Assembly (NCBI GenBank): GCA_048882045.1
Contig: JBHLRZ010000005.1
Span: 65,223 to 119,172 of the forward strand
Length of the DNA: 53,950 nt
Source of the DNA: Candidatus Thorarchaeota archaeon
GTDB lineage: Archaea; Asgardarchaeota; Thorarchaeia; Thorarchaeales; Thorarchaeaceae
Direction: 5' to 3'
Position numbers and translations under genes: made by a program. This document shows positions 4,759 to 12,905 of this stretch, one piece after another. Every line of letters starts with the position of its first letter. The stretch's first letter is position 1. The notes under the pieces are model-generated. The model had not been told where the DNA came from, made no database searches, and was given only the letters and a program-made list of their open reading frames with translations.

Positions 4759-6657
4759 TCAAACGAGTAATATCTCGTCCAACTCGATTTCAACGTCCGA
4801 CTTTGTAGCTAGTTGGTATGCGGGCTGCATCACCTCGGAAGAACTCTTCTTGGTGAACCTGAATGGAGCTTCCGTCTGTCTAATGAATCCCCTTTCAACG
4901 AACTCCCTCATGTCTAATGGCAACCAGATCTCACTGAAGTGAGTCTTAAGATCGTAATGAGTAATCTCATCCTTCTTTTCGAGGAGTCGAAGGATAGGTT
5001 GCACAAAAGTGGCAAGGTGTTCGTCTAAGTAGTTCTCCATCTTCTCTAATGTATCTCTCATGACATCCCATGACTTGACAGGAGTGTGGATCATATCTAT
5101 GAGGATGGTTTTGAAGAACTCTGGATTGAATTCCAGCGCCTGCTCTGTAGATTCCCTGAGTGGTACGGTCTTATTGAGTAATACCTCGATGTTCGCCATT
5201 CTTCGAATCCCTGACATTATGAAGTTCAATGCAAAGTGAGGATCATCCTTGACATAGAGTGCTTTGTACGACTTGTTGATGAGATCCTTACAAAAGATGT
5301 AGTTGAGTAACAAAAGGTCCTCGACATCACGAGATCCCATATCATTCACGTCTTCATAGAAATCCATGATTGAATCATCTTTGGAAACGAGTAGTTTACT
5401 CTTAGAGAAGTATGAGTGGAAGATACTTCCATCTTTCACTCTGTTTGTTCCACTTCTGAAGTAATCTCGTGTCACAACTTCCCCCTCCATGAAAACATCT
5501 TTCTCAACAAATACACGTTGTCTTCTATATGGTTCGTCTCGAACGACAATCATGAAATCAATGTCCGATTTCTCCCAAACAGTATCGTATGACAGACTCC
5601 CTGCTACCATGAGGTTCAGAACATACTCATCTGCTTCAGTTTTCTTCACAAGTTCATCCAGTGCACTCTGGTAATCCGCCAGAACACGCTCCCTATCGAC
5701 ATCCGCTGGACCAATCCTCGTTGGTTGTACCTTTGCAGAATCGAACGAGTCCCAACTGAAGTGATAGAGCGGTTCATTGTACTCAACAACTCCCTTCTTA
5801 GTCAACTTAACAGGAGTAATTGTGCGTCTGAGGATTCGCCGTCGGTGGAGATGTTCAATCCAAAGGAGTGCCATCCCTCGAGGTCGAAATCGAGTCATGA
5901 TATCCGTCTGTGATGCTGTTCCACCTTCCTCTGAGATGAAATCCAGAATCGGTTTGTGTACTTGTACGTCAATCGAGTCGAGGTACTCATATCCCAATCT
6001 TAAAGCATTCTCAAGAGACTCCTTCGTTACTTTTGTGTCGATTAGTTCATCAAAGAGCTTCGGGAATAACTCTGGTAGATACTGCCTCCCTTTCAGGATG
6101 ACTTCTCGTGGTGGCCAGACATCGTTGAGATAGCATAATAGGTATCCGAGTTCGCTGAGACCATGCAGGAGAAAGTGGAAACTATGAGCTAGATCTTTCT
6201 TGATATAGAGATACTTCTCTGCCTTCTCAAAGTCGTATCTTACTGCACCAAAATAGACCATCTGGAGATATCTCCTATCTCCCTCTCCAACATTCTTGTT
6301 CATTCTCTTGTAATAATCGGTGAAAGAACAGTCTCGAGAGAAGACCAGTTTGCTGTATGAGAGGGACTGCATCATCCCTCTTCCTATTGAGTGCTGTATT
6401 CTCCTCAAGAACTCATTCTTGTTATAGATTTCTAGATCTATTGGTATACCTACCTCCACGAGTCTTGATGTTCGATGTTGTCCCTCATCTACAATGACAT
6501 AGGCGTTTATGTTCGACCGTTCAGTGACCTCATCATACGCCATGCTTCCATAGATGATGATAGCAAGAACTCTCTTGTCCTCCTTTGCTCGTTCGATGAA
6601 GCGAGTGAGTGCATCATCGAACTGCTTTCTAACTTGTGGATCTTCCATCTGGATCAA
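4759..6657 (-). CDS. Tandem-duplicated Pol-beta-type nucleotidyltransferase (2 x [NTase, helical domain, probable winged helix]); N-terminal copy catalytically degenerate
   Basis: The halves align. Copy 1 reads YGSMAYDEVTERSNINAY and copy 2 reads AGSLSYDTVWEKSDIDF (GS...DxD). Both contain a [AS][EY]KxLY[IV]KxD segment and end with P[VF][KR][LF]TKK...[EQ]PxY. Start is TTG 6657 or ATG 6648. Confidence 0.8.
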   Translation of the reverse strand: MIQMEDPQVRKQFDDALTRFIERAKEDKRVLAIIIYGSMAYDEVTERSNINAYVIVDEGQHRTSRLVEVGIPIDLEIYNKNEFLRRIQHSIGRGMMQSLSYSKLVFSRDCSFTDYYKRMNKNVGEGDRRYLQMVYFGAVRYDFEKAEKYLYIKKDLAHSFHFLLHGLSELGYLLCYLNDVWPPREVILKGRQYLPELFPKLFDELIDTKVTKESLENALRLGYEYLDSIDVQVHKPILDFISEEGGTASQTDIMTRFRPRGMALLWIEHLHRRRILRRTITPVKLTKKGVVEYNEPLYHFSWDSFDSAKVQPTRIGPADVDRERVLADYQSALDELVKKTEADEYVLNLMVAGSLSYDTVWEKSDIDFMIVVRDEPYRRQRVFVEKDVFMEGEVVTRDYFRSGTNRVKDGSIFHSYFSKSKLLVSKDDSIMDFYEDVNDMGSRDVEDLLLLNYIFCKDLINKSYKALYVKDDPHFALNFIMSGIRRMANIEVLLNKTVPLRESTEQALEFNPEFFKTILIDMIHTPVKSWDVMRDTLEKMENYLDEHLATFVQPILRLLEKKDEITHYDLKTHFSEIWLPLDMREFVERGFIRQTEAPFRFTKKSSSEVMQPAYQLATKSDVEIELDEILLV

Positions 6658-6668
6658 CCCCTCCTGAA

Positions 6669-9503
6669 TCAGGAAGTTACCACAACGTTCTGGAGAAACT
6701 GACCAGTGTAAGACTTCCTACACTTGATGATGTCTTCAACAGTCCCCTCAGCAATGACCTCGCCGCCCTCAGCGCCGCCTTCAGGTCCTAGATCGATTAC
6801 CCAATCAGCTGACTTGATGATGTCAAGGTGGTGTTCGATGACGATGACAGTGTTCCCTGCATCCACCAGTCTATTGACGGTCTTCAGGAGCATCTGGATA
6901 TCCTCCATATGGAGCCCAACGGATGGTTCGTCCATGATGTAGAGGTTGTCCTTCAGTTTCTTCAGCTTACCAAGCTCCTTAGCTAGTTTTATTCGTTGAG
7001 ATTCTCCGCCGCTCAATGTGGGTGCTGGCTGTCCAAGCTTCAGATAACCAAGGCCAAGTTCCATCATGGTCTTTGTTTTGTGATAGATGAGTCGCGTGTC
7101 CTTGAAGAACTTGTTAGCTTCCTCAACTGTCATGTTCAGGACCTCCCCGATGTTCTTGCCCTTGTATTTGATCTCCAGTACTTCTTCAGAGAACCGGGCT
7201 CCTTTACAGACAGGGCAGACGGTCTGAATGTCTGGCATGTACTGAAGTTCTATTCGAACAAGGCCTTCTCCGTTGCACTCTGTACAACGTCCCTCAGTTG
7301 AGTTGTAACTGAACCTCCCAATCTTGTAGCCTCGTTCCTTCGCCATCTCGGTATCTGCGAACACTCTGCGTATCTTATCGAAGAACCCAACATAGGTCGC
7401 GGGTATACTCCTGGAGTTTCTTCCGATAGGCGATTGGTCGACAATTCGTACATCCACTACATTCTCAATCCCTTCTATCCTGTCCAGCTTTCCTGGGATG
7501 ACCCGAAGGTCTCGCATGTCGTGAATGAGCTTGTTGCCGAGTACATCCTCGATTAGTGTACTTTTCCCGGATCCAGAAACACCAGTGATACAGATGAAGA
7601 CACCAAGTGGAAACTCCACGTCAATTCCCTTCAGATTGTTCTCACGGGCATTGATTACTTTCAAGGACTTGCCGTTGGGTTTCCTCGCCTTACCAAAGTA
7701 GGGAATCTGTTTCTTACCCGATAGGTAGTGACCAGTCAGGAACTTCGGATTATCCACTATTTCATCGTATTGTCCCTGTGCGATGATTCTACCACCATGG
7801 ACACCAGGTCCTGGACCTATCTCAATGATGTTGTCAGCCTGCTTGATGGTGTCCAAGTCATGTTCAATGACGATGACTGTATTCCCAGTATCTCTGAGGC
7901 GTTTGAGGATGTCCACGATTCTGTTGCTATCGCGCATATGGAGCCCAATTGAAGGTTCATCCAGCACATACAACATCCCCATGAGTTCCGACCCTAACTG
8001 AGTGGATAGCTTGATCCTTTGACCTTCTCCTGCACTCAAGGTCCTCGCGCGTCTGTTGAGCCTGAGGTAGTACAGACCAATATCCTCCAAGAGCTGAATC
8101 CGTTTCCTGAGTTCGAAGATGACCTGATTACCAGCCTTCTCCCGGTCTTTAGGAATCCTAATGGAGTCCACATACTCGAGTAGATGGTTGATGAAGTATT
8201 CACCTAGCTCATCGATGTTCTTTCCTTCTACAGTTACGAGTAATCGTTGTGGTATGAGTTTCTTGCCCTGACAGTCCGGACAGGTATGCTCAGTCATCAG
8301 CTTTCGATACCACTCATATCGCTCTCCCTTCTTTCTGTCATTCCTATAGTGCCTGTCAATATAGTTGCAGATTCCCAGAAAGCGAACCTTCTGCCCAACA
8401 TTGCGATGACGATACTTGTTCGGCCAGTCAGGCGGTTCCTGAAGGATGAACTCCTCCCTGATGCCAAACAGAATCTGGTTTCGGATATCCTCTGACAGGT
8501 CTTGCCACGCTGTCTTCAAGTCAAATCCGAGATGTTGGCCTATGCTGTATGCCCAGTACTTAGCCCACCACTTCAGTGCTCCATCGTTCATGCCCTTTCT
8601 TGGGTCTACAACGACAAGTCTTGCATCTGCCTTCATCAACATCCCCATTCCAAGACATGTTGAACATGCATTCTCTGGAAGGTTAGGTGAGAACGCCCCC
8701 GGTAGAAGGGTGTGCATCACAATGTGGTGGTCTTTGCATCCGAAGGTTTCATAGAACTTGCTTGAGATATCCTCAGATATCTTGTCATCTGAGAACTCGA
8801 ATCTGATGAATCCGCTACCGACTTGTTTGGCGTTTTCAATTGATATTGCAAATTGATGATAGAGGTCCTTCTTGATAATGATTCGATCCACTATTACTTC
8901 AATTCGATAGTCCTTCTCTTCATCAAGGTCTATCTTGTCGCTGATAGTGAATGGTTCTCCATCAATCTTGATTCTCTTGTATCCCTTCGATCGTATATCG
9001 TCGAACAGATAGGGATAGTCCTCATCATAGAACTTGTTCACTGGAGCAAGTATCTCGACACTGGTCCCTTCTGGAAGTGTCATGAGGTGATCAACAATTT
9101 GGTTTGCATTACGTGTGTGGATCTTCTTGTTGCAGTAGGGACAATAAGCCTGCCCTAGCACAGAGAAGAGGATTCTCATGTAGCTGGAGATGTCAGTCAT
9201 ACTCCCGACTGTTGATCTTGGGTTCTGTGTGCCAGTGCGCTGCTCAATTGCTACAACTGGCGAGAGTCCAAGTATTGAGTCAACATCAGCTCGTTCTAGC
9301 ATTGGTAGCATCGTACGAGAAGTTGCTGACATAGATTCGAAGAACTTACGCTGGCCTTCTGCAAAAATAACATCAAAGGCTAGAGAAGTCTTCCCAGATC
9401 CTGACACTCCTGTTATCACAGTGAGCTGGTCCCTGGGAATATCCACGTCTATATTTCTAAGATTGTTTGTCCTAGCTCCCTTTACACTAATGTGTTCTCT
9501 CAT
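6669..9503 (-). CDS. uvrA: UvrA-family excinuclease ABC ATPase, divergent paralog
   Basis: GARTNNLRNIDV, two Walker A motifs (GVSGSGKT, GVSGSGKS), signatures LSAGEGQR and LSGGESQR, two DEPSxGLH motifs, Zn-finger CxxC pairs and a C-terminal SYTGQFL. True start is ATG 9503 with a GGGAGG RBS. Confidence 0.95.
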   Translation of the reverse strand: MREHISVKGARTNNLRNIDVDIPRDQLTVITGVSGSGKTSLAFDVIFAEGQRKFFESMSATSRTMLPMLERADVDSILGLSPVVAIEQRTGTQNPRSTVGSMTDISSYMRILFSVLGQAYCPYCNKKIHTRNANQIVDHLMTLPEGTSVEILAPVNKFYDEDYPYLFDDIRSKGYKRIKIDGEPFTISDKIDLDEEKDYRIEVIVDRIIIKKDLYHQFAISIENAKQVGSGFIRFEFSDDKISEDISSKFYETFGCKDHHIVMHTLLPGAFSPNLPENACSTCLGMGMLMKADARLVVVDPRKGMNDGALKWWAKYWAYSIGQHLGFDLKTAWQDLSEDIRNQILFGIREEFILQEPPDWPNKYRHRNVGQKVRFLGICNYIDRHYRNDRKKGERYEWYRKLMTEHTCPDCQGKKLIPQRLLVTVEGKNIDELGEYFINHLLEYVDSIRIPKDREKAGNQVIFELRKRIQLLEDIGLYYLRLNRRARTLSAGEGQRIKLSTQLGSELMGMLYVLDEPSIGLHMRDSNRIVDILKRLRDTGNTVIVIEHDLDTIKQADNIIEIGPGPGVHGGRIIAQGQYDEIVDNPKFLTGHYLSGKKQIPYFGKARKPNGKSLKVINARENNLKGIDVEFPLGVFICITGVSGSGKSTLIEDVLGNKLIHDMRDLRVIPGKLDRIEGIENVVDVRIVDQSPIGRNSRSIPATYVGFFDKIRRVFADTEMAKERGYKIGRFSYNSTEGRCTECNGEGLVRIELQYMPDIQTVCPVCKGARFSEEVLEIKYKGKNIGEVLNMTVEEANKFFKDTRLIYHKTKTMMELGLGYLKLGQPAPTLSGGESQRIKLAKELGKLKKLKDNLYIMDEPSVGLHMEDIQMLLKTVNRLVDAGNTVIVIEHHLDIIKSADWVIDLGPEGGAEGGEVIAEGTVEDIIKCRKSYTGQFLQNVVVTS

Positions 9504-9512
9504 GCAATCATG

Positions 9513-9585
9513 CCTCCCGACATCAGTGCAACCACTTGCCTCCGTTCGCCATGAAGGAGCAGAGTGGCCTGATGTCAGCTTGAGG
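9513..9585 (-). promoter_or_regulatory. Structured 5' leader hairpin of uvrA that sequesters the Shine-Dalgarno sequence
   Basis: mRNA 5'-CCUC AAG CUGACAUCAG GCCACU C UGCUCC UUC AUGGC GAA C GGAG GCA AGUGGU UGCA CUGAUGUCGG GAGG-3' forms nested helices. CCUC pairs with the GAGG of the RBS, 9 nt before AUG. Confidence 0.7.
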
Positions 9586-9604
9586 TTTCTCACGATATGA
9601 GAAA
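9586..9604. promoter_or_regulatory. Perfect inverted repeat TTTCTCA-N5-TGAGAAA, candidate operator or 5' hairpin upstream of uvrA
   Basis: 7-5-7 palindrome between a TATA-like GTATATAC (~9629-9636) and the leader hairpin. Confidence 0.5.
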
Positions 9605-9674
9605 GTAGTTAGGATTCGTGTTTGGATTGTATATACATTCTATGGTCTCAGTAGGAAGTTGTTAATCAATAAGG

Positions 9675-10961
9675 TCATTCGTTCTTCTTTCTGATTATTA
9701 AAAATGCAATCGTAGTCGCAAGTACTGCTACTCCAGTCACACTAACAAATACAATTGACATATCGACTCCTTGAGGAAGATACTCATCCAGACCTATCGC
9801 AGGAATGATGACATATTCAACCAGAGAATCAGCTGGATAGAATGAACCGTCTGGTACATTTCCAGTTACAACTATTACCATATCCTCAGCTGGATACACA
9901 TAGAGAGCTTGCTCATAGTGTCCATGGGCGGAATATATTCCCAGCTCCGGCCAGACCCACCATTGGTATCCGAACATCTCATAACTGGGACTCCATGTCC
10001 ATCCTGTTTCAATTCTTGGGACTGTTGCCTCAACAACCCACTCTTCGGGCACCAGTTGTTCACCATCCCAAGTTCCATTGTTCAGCATGAGATATCCAAA
10101 TTTAGCAAAGTCACGGGGTGTCATATATAGACCACCATCTGTATGATACCACCCTCCGGCTTCTCCACCACGAATCTGAGCCCAGTATACATTATCAATA
10201 CCGAGAGATTGACCCAGATATTGGTCTGCAAACTCCAGAATAGATAAACCAGATTGCAACTCTATTATTCCTCCAAGGATTATCAGGGTTCCCGAATTGA
10301 CCCACCAAGACTCACCTGGATCATTCCACATAGGTCGGTCCAAACAATACTGAACAGCATCTTCGCTCACCCACATTTGACCTAGGTCATTCATCGGGTC
10401 GTCATAGGAGTAGTCGATTTCATGGAATTCCATACCATCTGTCCATGTGAGTAGGTGTTCAATTGTGATGTTCATCTTTCTGGAGTCCACGTTTTGGACT
10501 GTCCAACTGGAAAAGAAATCCATCATCTTGGAGTCAACGCTCTCAATAAATCCCTGTTCAATAGCTATTCCAACTAGTGTGGATGTAACGCATTTTGTAC
10601 ATGATTGAATCATATGGAGATCATTAGCTTCCCACCCTTCTCCATAGTACTCATAGACAAGGTAACCATCCCTTATCACCAACACTGAATCAATTGGATA
10701 ATTCATTTGGTCAATAGTTTGTTCAACTCTATCCAATTTCGATGAATTCATTCCGTGATTTTCCGGATAATCAACTTCCCAATCTTCTGTTGGCCAATAC
10801 GGTCTATCGATTGAAGATGTGAGATACATCTCTGTACTCTCTTCACAGGCAATTGGTTGTATTGGCGCAAGAGAAAGAATCAACATCATGAAAACGATAC
10901 ATAGTGACAGTGCAATATGTTTCGTAACAGCGCGGCGTGTCATTATCATCAAGACTATCAA
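9675..10961 (-). CDS. Secreted, membrane-anchored serine hydrolase of the beta-lactamase class C/EstB family
   Basis: SxxK motif (QSCTKCVTS), ITIEHLLTWTDG, GGLYMTPRDFAKFG and SAHGHYEQ. Signal peptide and C-terminal TM plus RKK. Confidence 0.9.
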   Translation of the reverse strand: MIVLMIMTRRAVTKHIALSLCIVFMMLILSLAPIQPIACEESTEMYLTSSIDRPYWPTEDWEVDYPENHGMNSSKLDRVEQTIDQMNYPIDSVLVIRDGYLVYEYYGEGWEANDLHMIQSCTKCVTSTLVGIAIEQGFIESVDSKMMDFFSSWTVQNVDSRKMNITIEHLLTWTDGMEFHEIDYSYDDPMNDLGQMWVSEDAVQYCLDRPMWNDPGESWWVNSGTLIILGGIIELQSGLSILEFADQYLGQSLGIDNVYWAQIRGGEAGGWYHTDGGLYMTPRDFAKFGYLMLNNGTWDGEQLVPEEWVVEATVPRIETGWTWSPSYEMFGYQWWVWPELGIYSAHGHYEQALYVYPAEDMVIVVTGNVPDGSFYPADSLVEYVIIPAIGLDEYLPQGVDMSIVFVSVTGVAVLATTIAFLIIRKKNE

Positions 10962-11651: not shown

Positions 11652-12905
11652 TTAGAGGAAGATACTATCTCCATAGAATCCAGTGCCGAAGAACACAGGC
11701 CCTCCCCACAATCCTATTCCGTCTCCGTCATCATCATACATGGGAGTTTCAGGCCAGCTGTCGTTGAGCACTGCGTACAAGTGAGCCTCGCGCATGGATA
11801 TCTTCCCGTCGTTATTGAAATCCGCCCATGCATCCCCGATACCTCCAGGTAATTTGGTTCCAATCAAAGCAGACATGAAGTGATAGACATACTCATCCCA
11901 TTGACCTTCTGTATCACATGCATAGGAGCTCTCGCCATCGTCACATGCTGTCATGATGACACGGTTTGAGGCACTGATAGCTTGGATAAACTGTCCTGAC
12001 CAGCACTGTTCCATTACAATTATCATATGATCACAAGTTATTGAATCCAACCAGCCTGCAACCTCTGTGGTATTCAGATACTGGTCACCACCATTGGGCC
12101 AGTAGGTCGTAAGTCCACTGGATCCTCCATGATTCGTTGTAAAGAAGAAGAACTTGTCATCTGCGGTCAACGTCTGATTGAGATTCTGAAAGACAGTTTC
12201 CATGGATGTCTGTGTAGCAGGATAGTCCACTGGTGTGTTTGTATCCTCTCCTACTCCATCCTTGTAGACGACATAGATATTGTCTGGAGGGTATCCGTTC
12301 AACAGCAGAATGAGGTACATGTAACTCAAATCATTCCAATATCGGAAGTATGCCTTATCAACTCTCCATCCTCCACTGTACAGAAGTGCGTACTTTTGTC
12401 CAATTGGCAATGTTTGTGTGAGATTAAGACCTTCCAAGACTGAGGAGTCGAGGAGTTTGTCCTCAAAGATTCCAGAAATCACAGTGGTTTCGAGAATCCT
12501 TTGTGACAGATATTTGACTTTGATATTTTCTTCTGAAAACGGATCGCATTCTGGATCCACTTCACATTCTACCTCGCGACATCGACCTAAAGGTTCCAAA
12601 TCTGGGACGAGATCTCCCAAAAATTCCAGCATGTTTCCAGATATCATTGAGTTATTAAGAAGCACAAAAGGATGATCAACAAGGACTAATCCCGATGGGC
12701 CTCTCACAATATACCCCTTAACTGTTACCTTTTTTCCAATATAGTCCGCAATGTTATTTGTCAGGTCTTCAACACTCATGGGAACCTCAGCAAGCGGAAC
12801 CATCGGCTGATACAATGTGAAGTAGTAGATTGTGCCTGCATTTGTCCCAAGGAGTACTAAGGCCAAAGCAATGAAGACTCTTCTATCTGCCATCTTCTCA
12901 ACCAC
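11652..12905 (-). CDS. Peptidase C13 (legumain/GPI8-like, caspase-hemoglobinase fold) with N-terminal membrane anchor and OB-fold-like segment
   Basis: Catalytic dyad TTNHGG and MEQCWSG, plus KYALLYSGG, RYWND and RVIMTAC. N-terminal TM followed by YIGKKVTVKGYI. Confidence 0.85.
   Translation of the reverse strand: MVEKMADRRVFIALALVLLGTNAGTIYYFTLYQPMVPLAEVPMSVEDLTNNIADYIGKKVTVKGYIVRGPSGLVLVDHPFVLLNNSMISGNMLEFLGDLVPDLEPLGRCREVECEVDPECDPFSEENIKVKYLSQRILETTVISGIFEDKLLDSSVLEGLNLTQTLPIGQKYALLYSGGWRVDKAYFRYWNDLSYMYLILLLNGYPPDNIYVVYKDGVGEDTNTPVDYPATQTSMETVFQNLNQTLTADDKFFFFTTNHGGSSGLTTYWPNGGDQYLNTTEVAGWLDSITCDHMIIVMEQCWSGQFIQAISASNRVIMTACDDGESSYACDTEGQWDEYVYHFMSALIGTKLPGGIGDAWADFNNDGKISMREAHLYAVLNDSWPETPMYDDDGDGIGLWGGPVFFGTGFYGDSIFL

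Follow-up and report, generated by a model that had tools for sequence, protein, structure and literature searches.

We analysed a window of 53,950 nucleotides (nt) of DNA (positions 65,223 to 119,172 of contig JBHLRZ010000005.1, hereafter C5) from the metagenome-assembled genome (MAG) of a Candidatus Thorarchaeota archaeon (GCA_048882045.1; a 3.6-Mb assembly, 93% complete), in which a uvrA gene is followed on the minus strand by a gene encoding a tandem nucleotidyltransferase (NTase). The two genes make up a conserved accessory two-gene module, composed of a UvrA paralog and an NTase with winged helix that resembles YgxA and kanamycin nucleotidyltransferase (KNTase), and the module stands beside a complete canonical uvrB-uvrA-uvrA-uvrC set. 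For both proteins, the best homologs were found in MAGs of Thorarchaeota and other Asgard archaea. The original prediction, made from the letters of the window alone, placed an NTase of 632 amino acids (aa) 11 nt behind uvrA, which is correct if translation starts at TTG 6657; because the homologs, like P0003 (an identical database protein of 629 aa), start with MEDP and thus at ATG 6648, the latter is the probable start, and this leaves a gap of 20 nt and a protein of 629 aa. The tandem build described there was borne out, with residues 1-316 and 317-632 being 26% identical over 300 aa (E 5e-28), and so were the motifs of the two units, SNIN in unit 1 (G37-S38 ... S48-N49-I50-N51) and SDID in unit 2 (G353-S354 ... 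S364-D365-I366-D367). As had also been stated, uvrB and uvrC are absent from the window; both were found on contig C4 of the same assembly, which in total carries four uvrA-type genes, one uvrB and one uvrC.

The pairing expected by the original prediction proved recurrent: genes of the NTase family, whether fused or single-unit, adjoin uvrA in Asgard archaea and in many bacteria. In 10 of 10 fused-type Asgard loci (from Thorarchaeota, Heimdallarchaeota and one Promethearchaeati MAG) the fused NTase has uvrA, 73-93% identical, directly upstream on the same strand, and besides these two genes no third neighbour is common to all 10. Within the Thorarchaeota family of the window, UvrA at least 76% identical was found in 11 of 81 genomes, and the ten of these also sampled for the NTase all carry it 12-22 nt from UvrA. 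The remaining family genomes with a UvrA found have only tandem canonical-type copies of 42-45% identity, save three genomes at 54-56%, two of which have this UvrA linked to a single-unit NTase; across the family as sampled, the window-type UvrA and the NTase share their pattern of presence and absence. Most lineages have a single-unit NTase (about 312 aa) encoded just upstream of uvrA, and in the Thorarchaeota/Heimdallarchaeota lineage two units are fused and encoded just downstream of it. In other Asgard genomes the NTase is a single unit of 311-325 aa, and in 14/14 loci its gene overlaps or directly adjoins a uvrA (948-965 aa, same clade) on its downstream side. The single-unit family was found in Chloroflexi, Planctomycetota, Chthonomonadales and others, and Atlas clusters extend it to Acidobacteriota and Bacillota. 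The NTase family amounts to about 210 clusters at 50% identity with E <=1e-30. Among bacterial metagenome loci, retrieved with bacterial single-unit NTases as queries, 50 of the 69 with sufficient room have a uvrA start less than 400 nt downstream of the NTase, and several more within 2.4 kb; no recurrent third partner was found in these loci, several apparent neighbour clusters being antisense open reading frames over the NTase. Poribacteria encode a fused 624-aa NTase upstream of uvrA, at a distance of up to 1 kb in 39 of 70 loci and of 1.3-6.6 kb in a further nine. A UvrA-NTase fusion was not seen among the best 150 of 1449 profile matches, the longest of which has 657 aa. Adjacency at more than 100 independent loci from two domains of life is far beyond chance, and because the pairing persists through changed gene order, independent fusions and inserted genes, a functional link is strongly supported. 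Thus uvrA and the NTase very probably form a functional module, and we infer that both proteins act in one pathway.

The UvrA of the window was placed in trees (IQ-TREE quick searches, LG+G4) built from the paralogs of its own genome, E. coli UvrA (NC_000913), Poribacteria UvrAs, database relatives and NTase-adjacent UvrAs. All NTase-linked UvrAs fall into one clade (Shimodaira-Hasegawa-like approximate likelihood ratio support, SH-aLRT, 100; stem 0.61), which takes in Asgard fused-type, Asgard single-type, Poribacteria and bacterial metagenome sequences, and within which a bacterial clade is set apart from an Asgard one that has a single Paenibacillus paralog as its basal branch. E. coli UvrA, the uvrB-linked Asgard copies and the N-halves of the double UvrAs of Poribacteria lie outside. 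These double proteins (loci L093-L095 and L102-L112) are fused UvrAs of 1850-1975 aa, in which the N-half is full and very canonical and the C-half, without the middle part, matches the model only at 2-285 and 404-923. Clade-wide changes in the NTase-linked UvrAs include a Cys to His substitution at E. coli position 256, within a zinc module, and Gly160 to Glu, as compared with a canonical side of n=7. Against solved class I UvrAs the window copy scores 930/879/913 bits and the uvrB-linked copy 1186/1151/1075, and with TIGR00630 the window copy reaches 1110.4 bits (cut-off 729.8), while the two uvrA genes on contig C4, where the order is uvrB-uvrA-uvrA-(gap)-uvrC, reach 1330 and 1274; with NF001503 the window copy is barely above the cut-off (1147.8 versus 1147 bits). 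Since the lone uvrB and uvrC sit with two other uvrA copies on C4, the window uvrA is a paralog and not the nucleotide excision repair (NER) uvrA of the genome, as the original prediction had supposed, and its placement in a separate clade indicates that it is not orthologous to NER UvrA.

Judged by its sequence, this UvrA has the full class I domain plan and intact ATPase motifs. The view that its motifs depart from the canonical ones stands in so far as the strings EGQRKFFESMSATSR and LSAGEGQR are present, yet the Walker A (GVSGSGKT/GVSGSGKS), signature (LSAGEGQR/LSGGESQR) and Walker B (LDEPS/MDEPS) sets are intact, and the CxxC pairs of the zinc modules are present. The UvrB-interaction domain is kept, as had been suspected (Pfam UvrA_inter at residues 133-237, E 1.8e-24), and Pfam UvrA_DNA-bind is also found (E 1.3e-12). 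With canonical class I UvrA (TIGR00630/NF001503; 2r6f, 3pih, 3zqj, 9gxk) the window protein shares its length and a plan of two ABC modules, zinc modules, a UvrB-interaction-type domain and an insertion (DNA-binding) domain, but it differs in its separate clade, lower scores and clade-wide substitutions and in being accessory and paired with an NTase. Class II UvrAs have about 800-850 aa, lack the UvrB-binding domain and act alone. Like members of that class (DrrC, Ecm16, D. radiodurans UvrA2) the window UvrA is a paralog coexisting with canonical UvrA; with 944 aa, a retained UvrA_inter domain and an NTase partner it falls outside class II, and solved UvrA2 (2vf7) and the UvrA-like chain 7sh1 of about 810 aa match it only from about residue 270, and more weakly. 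Some class II UvrAs shield DNA from intercalating natural products in an ATP-dependent manner (Ecm16; bioRxiv 10.1101/2022.02.02.478902). The analogy to DrrC drawn in the original prediction is therefore a loose one, DrrC-type proteins having no UvrB-binding domain and the window UvrA keeping one.

Pfam recognises Pol-beta-type NTase domains in both halves of the window NTase. Unit 2 conforms to the Pol-beta motif (Polbeta 41.7 bits, cut-off 26.9; NTP_transf_2 29.4 bits, cut-off 21), whereas unit 1 keeps GS and has NIN in place of the metal-binding DxD. The AlphaFold2 model (predicted local distance difference test, pLDDT, 90.9; predicted template modelling score, pTM, 0.89) shows in each unit an NTase domain, a HEPN-like bundle and a winged helix. 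The best structure match is 3c18, a YgxA-like 'nucleotidyltransferase-like protein' from Exiguobacterium (Z 18.0; 278 of 290 residues, model residues 328-618, winged helix included), which is also found by the sequence profile of the NTase (E 2.3e-10) and has the same three-domain plan (PF14540, PF22339 and the helix-turn-helix (HTH) domain PF18576, HTH_52); it differs in having Leu at the second metal-binding Asp, and the NTase of the YgxA family is catalogued as 'NTF-like'; that family is not known to be linked to uvrA. PF22339 and PF14540 gave no match to the window NTase at E <=0.01, and in some homologs PF22339 appears only as a precomputed or sub-threshold match (24.1 bits versus 27). 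The analogy to KNTase made in the original prediction is supported by the fold: ANT(4')/kanamycin NTase matches over the NTase and helical domains (Z 14.1-14.3, 236-241 residues, root-mean-square deviation 3.5-3.6 A; in Foldseek E 4e-9 and a template modelling score of 0.71-0.73 on the target), followed by LinB over the same two domains (Z 11.6). With ANT(4')-Ia, ANT(4')-IIb and LinB/Lnu each unit shares a Pol-beta NTase followed by a HEPN-like helical domain and the GS...DxD motif. KNTase-type enzymes are active as dimers that bind their substrate at the interface of the two subunits. The window NTase differs from them in an identity of about 13%, an extra winged helix, fused subunits and one dead site, and among curated resistance families no ANT model reaches its cut-off, the sole match being Lnu(F) with 16 bits versus 450.

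Further structure matches cover parts of the unit: the HEPN protein 1wol the helical domain (444-552, Z 10.0), HxlR the winged helix (552-620, Z 7.6) and Hailong HalB the NTase domain with part of the helical region (Z about 10). The MNT-HEPN type VII toxin-antitoxin system (MntA-HepT) resembles the unit in its minimal NTase and HEPN-like bundle (Z about 8 for each part), but the window protein has both parts in one chain and a UvrA as partner, lacks the Rx4-6H motif and gives 19.1 bits against the 60 of the MntA model; in both units and in single units a conserved Arg (R184/R501, 'PxRE') has no His 4-6 residues further on. Among 129 single units GS, S-D-x-D and several residues of the helical domain and the wing are 99-100% conserved, and because GS and S-D-x-D are so well kept the single-unit family looks catalytically active. 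Proteins of 513-521 aa (P0332, P0111, P0372) carry an extracytoplasmic function (ECF) sigma-70 factor (regions 2 and 4) fused N-terminally to one NTase-helical-winged HTH unit.

Loss of one active site has taken place in two lineages. Among 41 fused proteins from Asgard archaea, the first Asp of unit 1 survives in 7% and the second in 2%; other family-invariant residues have been lost from this unit as well, and unit 2 retains nearly all of them. The 36 fused proteins of Poribacteria have the reversed polarity, with unit 2 being without GS, Ser and both Asp. In a tree of units both Asgard units group together with one Asgard single unit, and unit 1 of Poribacteria stands among bacterial single units. 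A single ancestral fusion, with all first units in one clade, was ruled out by the approximately unbiased (AU) test (p 0.0023, the grouping having been named after the tree was seen). From the tree and this test we conclude that fusion and decay of one site occurred independently in Asgard archaea (dead unit first) and in Poribacteria (dead unit second). This fits a dimeric enzyme that needs only one active centre: two independent fusions, each with one live site, are a natural experiment that would indicate an asymmetric dimer as the functional enzyme. Clues to a cis or trans arrangement conflict: Q268 accompanies the live unit in Asgard archaea but the dead one in Poribacteria, and unit 1 of Poribacteria is alone in lacking K224.

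Upstream of uvrA, the 10 related Asgard loci share a TATA-like run at the matching place and a leader kept from Thorarchaeota to Heimdallarchaeota. RNAalifold gave 24 pairs for this leader, 6 of them with compensatory changes, and a variable hairpin also carries such changes; 97.5% of cells are paired, compared with 29-44% when the partners are slid, and covariation is 0.257 versus 0.132 in shuffles (0/500 as high). Rfam returned no match. The leader would sequester the ribosome-binding site of uvrA and is a candidate riboregulator, and thus a new candidate cis-regulatory RNA in Asgard archaea. A CTCA-N5-6-TGAGA palindrome upstream of uvrA is invariant in 10/10 fused-type loci, shows no covariation and is absent from most single-type loci; because it is placed just after the TATA-like box, it could equally be a DNA operator.

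Features of the uvrA-NTase locus and of related loci. Positions refer to the window unless a genome, contig or locus is named; SD, Shine-Dalgarno sequence.
Feature	Position	Strand	Remarks
uvrA paralog, NTase-associated clade	6669..9503	-	944 aa, ATG at 9503, GGGAGG 9 nt upstream
Tandem NTase gene	4759..6657	-	probable start ATG 6648 (629 aa); TTG 6657 gives 632 aa
NTase unit 1 (residues 1-316)	5710..6657	-	GS kept, NIN for DxD at 6505-6513, helical domain, winged helix
NTase unit 1 winged helix	about 5758-5955	-	very basic
NTase unit 2 (residues 317-632)	4762..5709	-	GS 5596-5601, DID 5557-5565, HEPN-like helical domain, winged helix
NTase unit 2 winged helix	about 4804-5001	-	
TATA-like box (TGTATATAC)	9629..9637	-	about 25 nt upstream of leader; predicted promoter element, sequence read directly
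Conserved 5' leader of uvrA, about 100 nt	9504..9606	-	alignment of 10 Asgard loci
P1 palindrome/hairpin CTCA-N5-TGAGA	9586-9604	-	
Anti-SD ACCUCA	9581-9586	-	pairs with SD GGGAGG 9513-9518
CAUCAG	9569-9574	-	pairs with CUGAUG 9521-9526, enclosing variable hairpin
Beta-lactamase-family serine hydrolase	9675-10961	-	PF00144, E 3e-31; just upstream of uvrA promoter
Peptidase C13 (legumain-like) protein	11652-12905	-	beyond beta-lactamase-family gene
Canonical NER cluster uvrB-uvrA-uvrA-uvrC	G000:C4:104920-115722		loci L001, L002, L009, L011
Double UvrA	G000:C5:58985-63811		locus L114; 1643 aa, 1.4 kb left of window
Inserted alpha/beta hydrolase	L019:9164-10000, L021:4421-5200, L022:9159-9937		
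ArsR/GyrI-like regulators	L117:7313-8182, L124:9255-10136, L120:8862-9794		plus three more Asgard loci

Other genomes do not keep the serine hydrolase and peptidase C13 genes of the window beside the module. Three Heimdall-type loci have an alpha/beta-fold hydrolase of 278 aa with a GESYGG nucleophile elbow between uvrA and the fused NTase, and in six Asgard loci ArsR-type HTH and GyrI-like (drug/effector-binding) regulators are directly upstream of single-unit NTase-uvrA operons, one of which (L117) has a major facilitator superfamily (MFS) transporter downstream of uvrA. In the Poribacteria loci L023-L092 a UvrD-type helicase follows the NTase-clade uvrA in 25/70, and in 31 the fused NTase has a gene for a 253-aa MNT-HEPN fusion protein about 2 kb upstream. 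The tandem uvrA genes on contig C4 have diverged from each other, and since almost all sampled genomes of the Thorarchaeota family contain such a tandem pair, the two UvrAs may form an obligate heterodimer. The double UvrA left of the window has four Walker A motifs and very divergent halves of about 820 aa with 35-40% identity to E. coli; a similar gene is located near the single-type module of locus L124.

As to mechanism, the UvrA paralog would use ATP to find, or to pry off, something abnormal on DNA, and the winged helices would hold the NTase at DNA or at UvrA. The live site of the NTase would then transfer a nucleotide (AMP or another NMP) to a hydroxyl group of the target, most likely a DNA-binding xenobiotic or genotoxin, and the module would in this way provide a combined 'dislodge and inactivate' resistance. 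The single-unit NTase presumably works as a homodimer, as KNTase does, and the fused form would be a single-chain pseudo-dimer, in which the dead unit completes the substrate cleft of the dimer and adds another contact to DNA or protein; that this dead half serves as a binding or allosteric module is plausible. We rank such a response to DNA toxins by UvrA and NTase first, because of the antibiotic-NTase fold, the ArsR and GyrI-like regulators, the MFS transporter and hydrolases and the precedent of Ecm16 and DrrC, although we hold it to fall somewhat short of an even chance, and a small-molecule genotoxin as the substrate of the NTase is likewise a tentative proposal. More broadly, the pair might represent an unrecognised cross-domain UvrA branch that couples the recognition of damage or adducts to nucleotidyl transfer onto a toxin, a repair partner, the lesion or a DNA end. 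One composite active site would be enough for the reaction, so that the independent fusions could each let one site decay; we regard this wider reading as rather unlikely.

Several observations weigh against a catalytic DNA-toxin response, and some of them favour other explanations. The UvrB-binding domain, absent in the known drug-resistance UvrAs, is kept and points to a hand-off to UvrB and to true repair, as does UvrD behind uvrA in the 25 Poribacteria loci; the wing is among the best-conserved parts of the NTase and antibiotic NTases have no winged helix, which suggests that contact with DNA or protein is central. On these grounds the pair could be a specialised NER branch, in which the UvrA paralog hands a particular class of lesion to UvrB and the NTase acts on a macromolecule: it might nucleotidylate a lesion, a DNA-protein adduct or a DNA end, or AMPylate UvrA or UvrB as a switch of the pathway. 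All DNA-binding modules of UvrA are retained, two winged helices would be present per NTase dimer, and the lone uvrB of the genome would serve all UvrA paralogs. The helical domain is HEPN-like and MNT-HEPN complexes are among the structural matches; MntA modifies its HEPN partner. We nevertheless consider this explanation unlikely, since the best full-unit matches besides 3c18 are small-molecule NTases, drug-sensor regulators, a transporter and hydrolases recur nearby, and the pair has no conserved nuclease, ligase or polymerase neighbour. Other points concern the need for catalysis: about 10% of the Asgard fused proteins are also without the second Asp of the 'live' site (e.g. SDIG in L019), and a single-unit NTase (L115:8229-9185), whose UvrA is sister to the fused-type clade, has lost the first Asp and reads S-N-L-D, so that catalysis may not always be needed and some members may be non-catalytic; the fusions to ECF sigma factors hint at a possible regulatory or sensory function of the unit. 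In Poribacteria, moreover, the two genes are more than 9 kb apart in 17/70 loci, the NTase-clade uvrA sitting elsewhere in those genomes in which they are separated, and in the UvrA trees E. coli is the sole experimentally known sequence on the canonical side.

The loss of catalytic Asp and the sigma-factor fusions would agree with an NTase-winged HTH protein that is mainly a ligand-sensing DNA-binding regulator of its operon, acting for instance on the palindrome at the transcription start, with its NTase fold as a pocket for a nucleotide or ligand and UvrA as the sole effector. A winged helix in each unit, the position and invariance of that palindrome in the fused-type loci and the degenerate NTase of the YgxA family, with its identical three-domain plan, point the same way, but GS and DxD are conserved in nearly all single units, which argues for catalysis, the single-type Asgard operons have a separate ArsR/GyrI-like regulator and mostly lack the palindrome, and a plain repressor would not usually be so tightly coupled in translation to a partner of enzyme size in two domains of life; a mainly regulatory role thus seems improbable. 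Still less probable is a defence pair against phages or mobile elements, in which an ABC-type ATPase would be the sensor and the NTase the effector or signal generator. The distribution is patchy and accessory (11 of the 81 family genomes) with variable flanks, Hailong HalB, which makes oligodeoxyadenylate, is among the structural matches, and in PADLOC the UvrA matches the UvrA-like mad3 (E 1e-79) and mad8 of the MADS system. These PADLOC matches arise, however, through plain ABC homology, the only models matched by the NTase are generic MNT-type candidates (E 5e-8), and PADLOC assigned the pair to no specific defence family. The UvrA tree keeps the Asgard and bacterial clades apart, without the scrambling typical of defence genes, a plasmid collection gave no match to a bacterial single-unit NTase, and no nuclease, pore or TIR effector is conserved nearby. 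That a redundant NER UvrA copy and an unrelated NTase lie side by side without functional meaning is very hard to reconcile with a pairing kept across Asgard archaea and several bacterial phyla despite inverted order, independent fusions and inserted genes, and with the shared presence and absence of the two genes; we deem it highly improbable.

To our knowledge UvrA paralogs are common and their roles mostly unknown, the only worked-out cases being stand-alone class II proteins that protect antibiotic producers, and our literature searches returned no description of a UvrA-NTase pair and found YgxA to be uncharacterised. The pair reported here is a defined unit, in which a separate UvrA clade with the whole NER architecture is joined by an NTase partner, and it spans Asgard archaea, Chloroflexota, Planctomycetota, Acidobacteriota-like bacteria and the sponge-symbiont Poribacteria. 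The module belongs with the accessory systems built on UvrA paralogs, and there is a fair chance that a new reaction lies behind it. If both proteins do cooperate, nucleotidyl transfer would be a new chemical step tied to the sensing of DNA damage. The module also offers a marker with which genomes can be searched for unusual repair pathways or resistance to DNA toxins.

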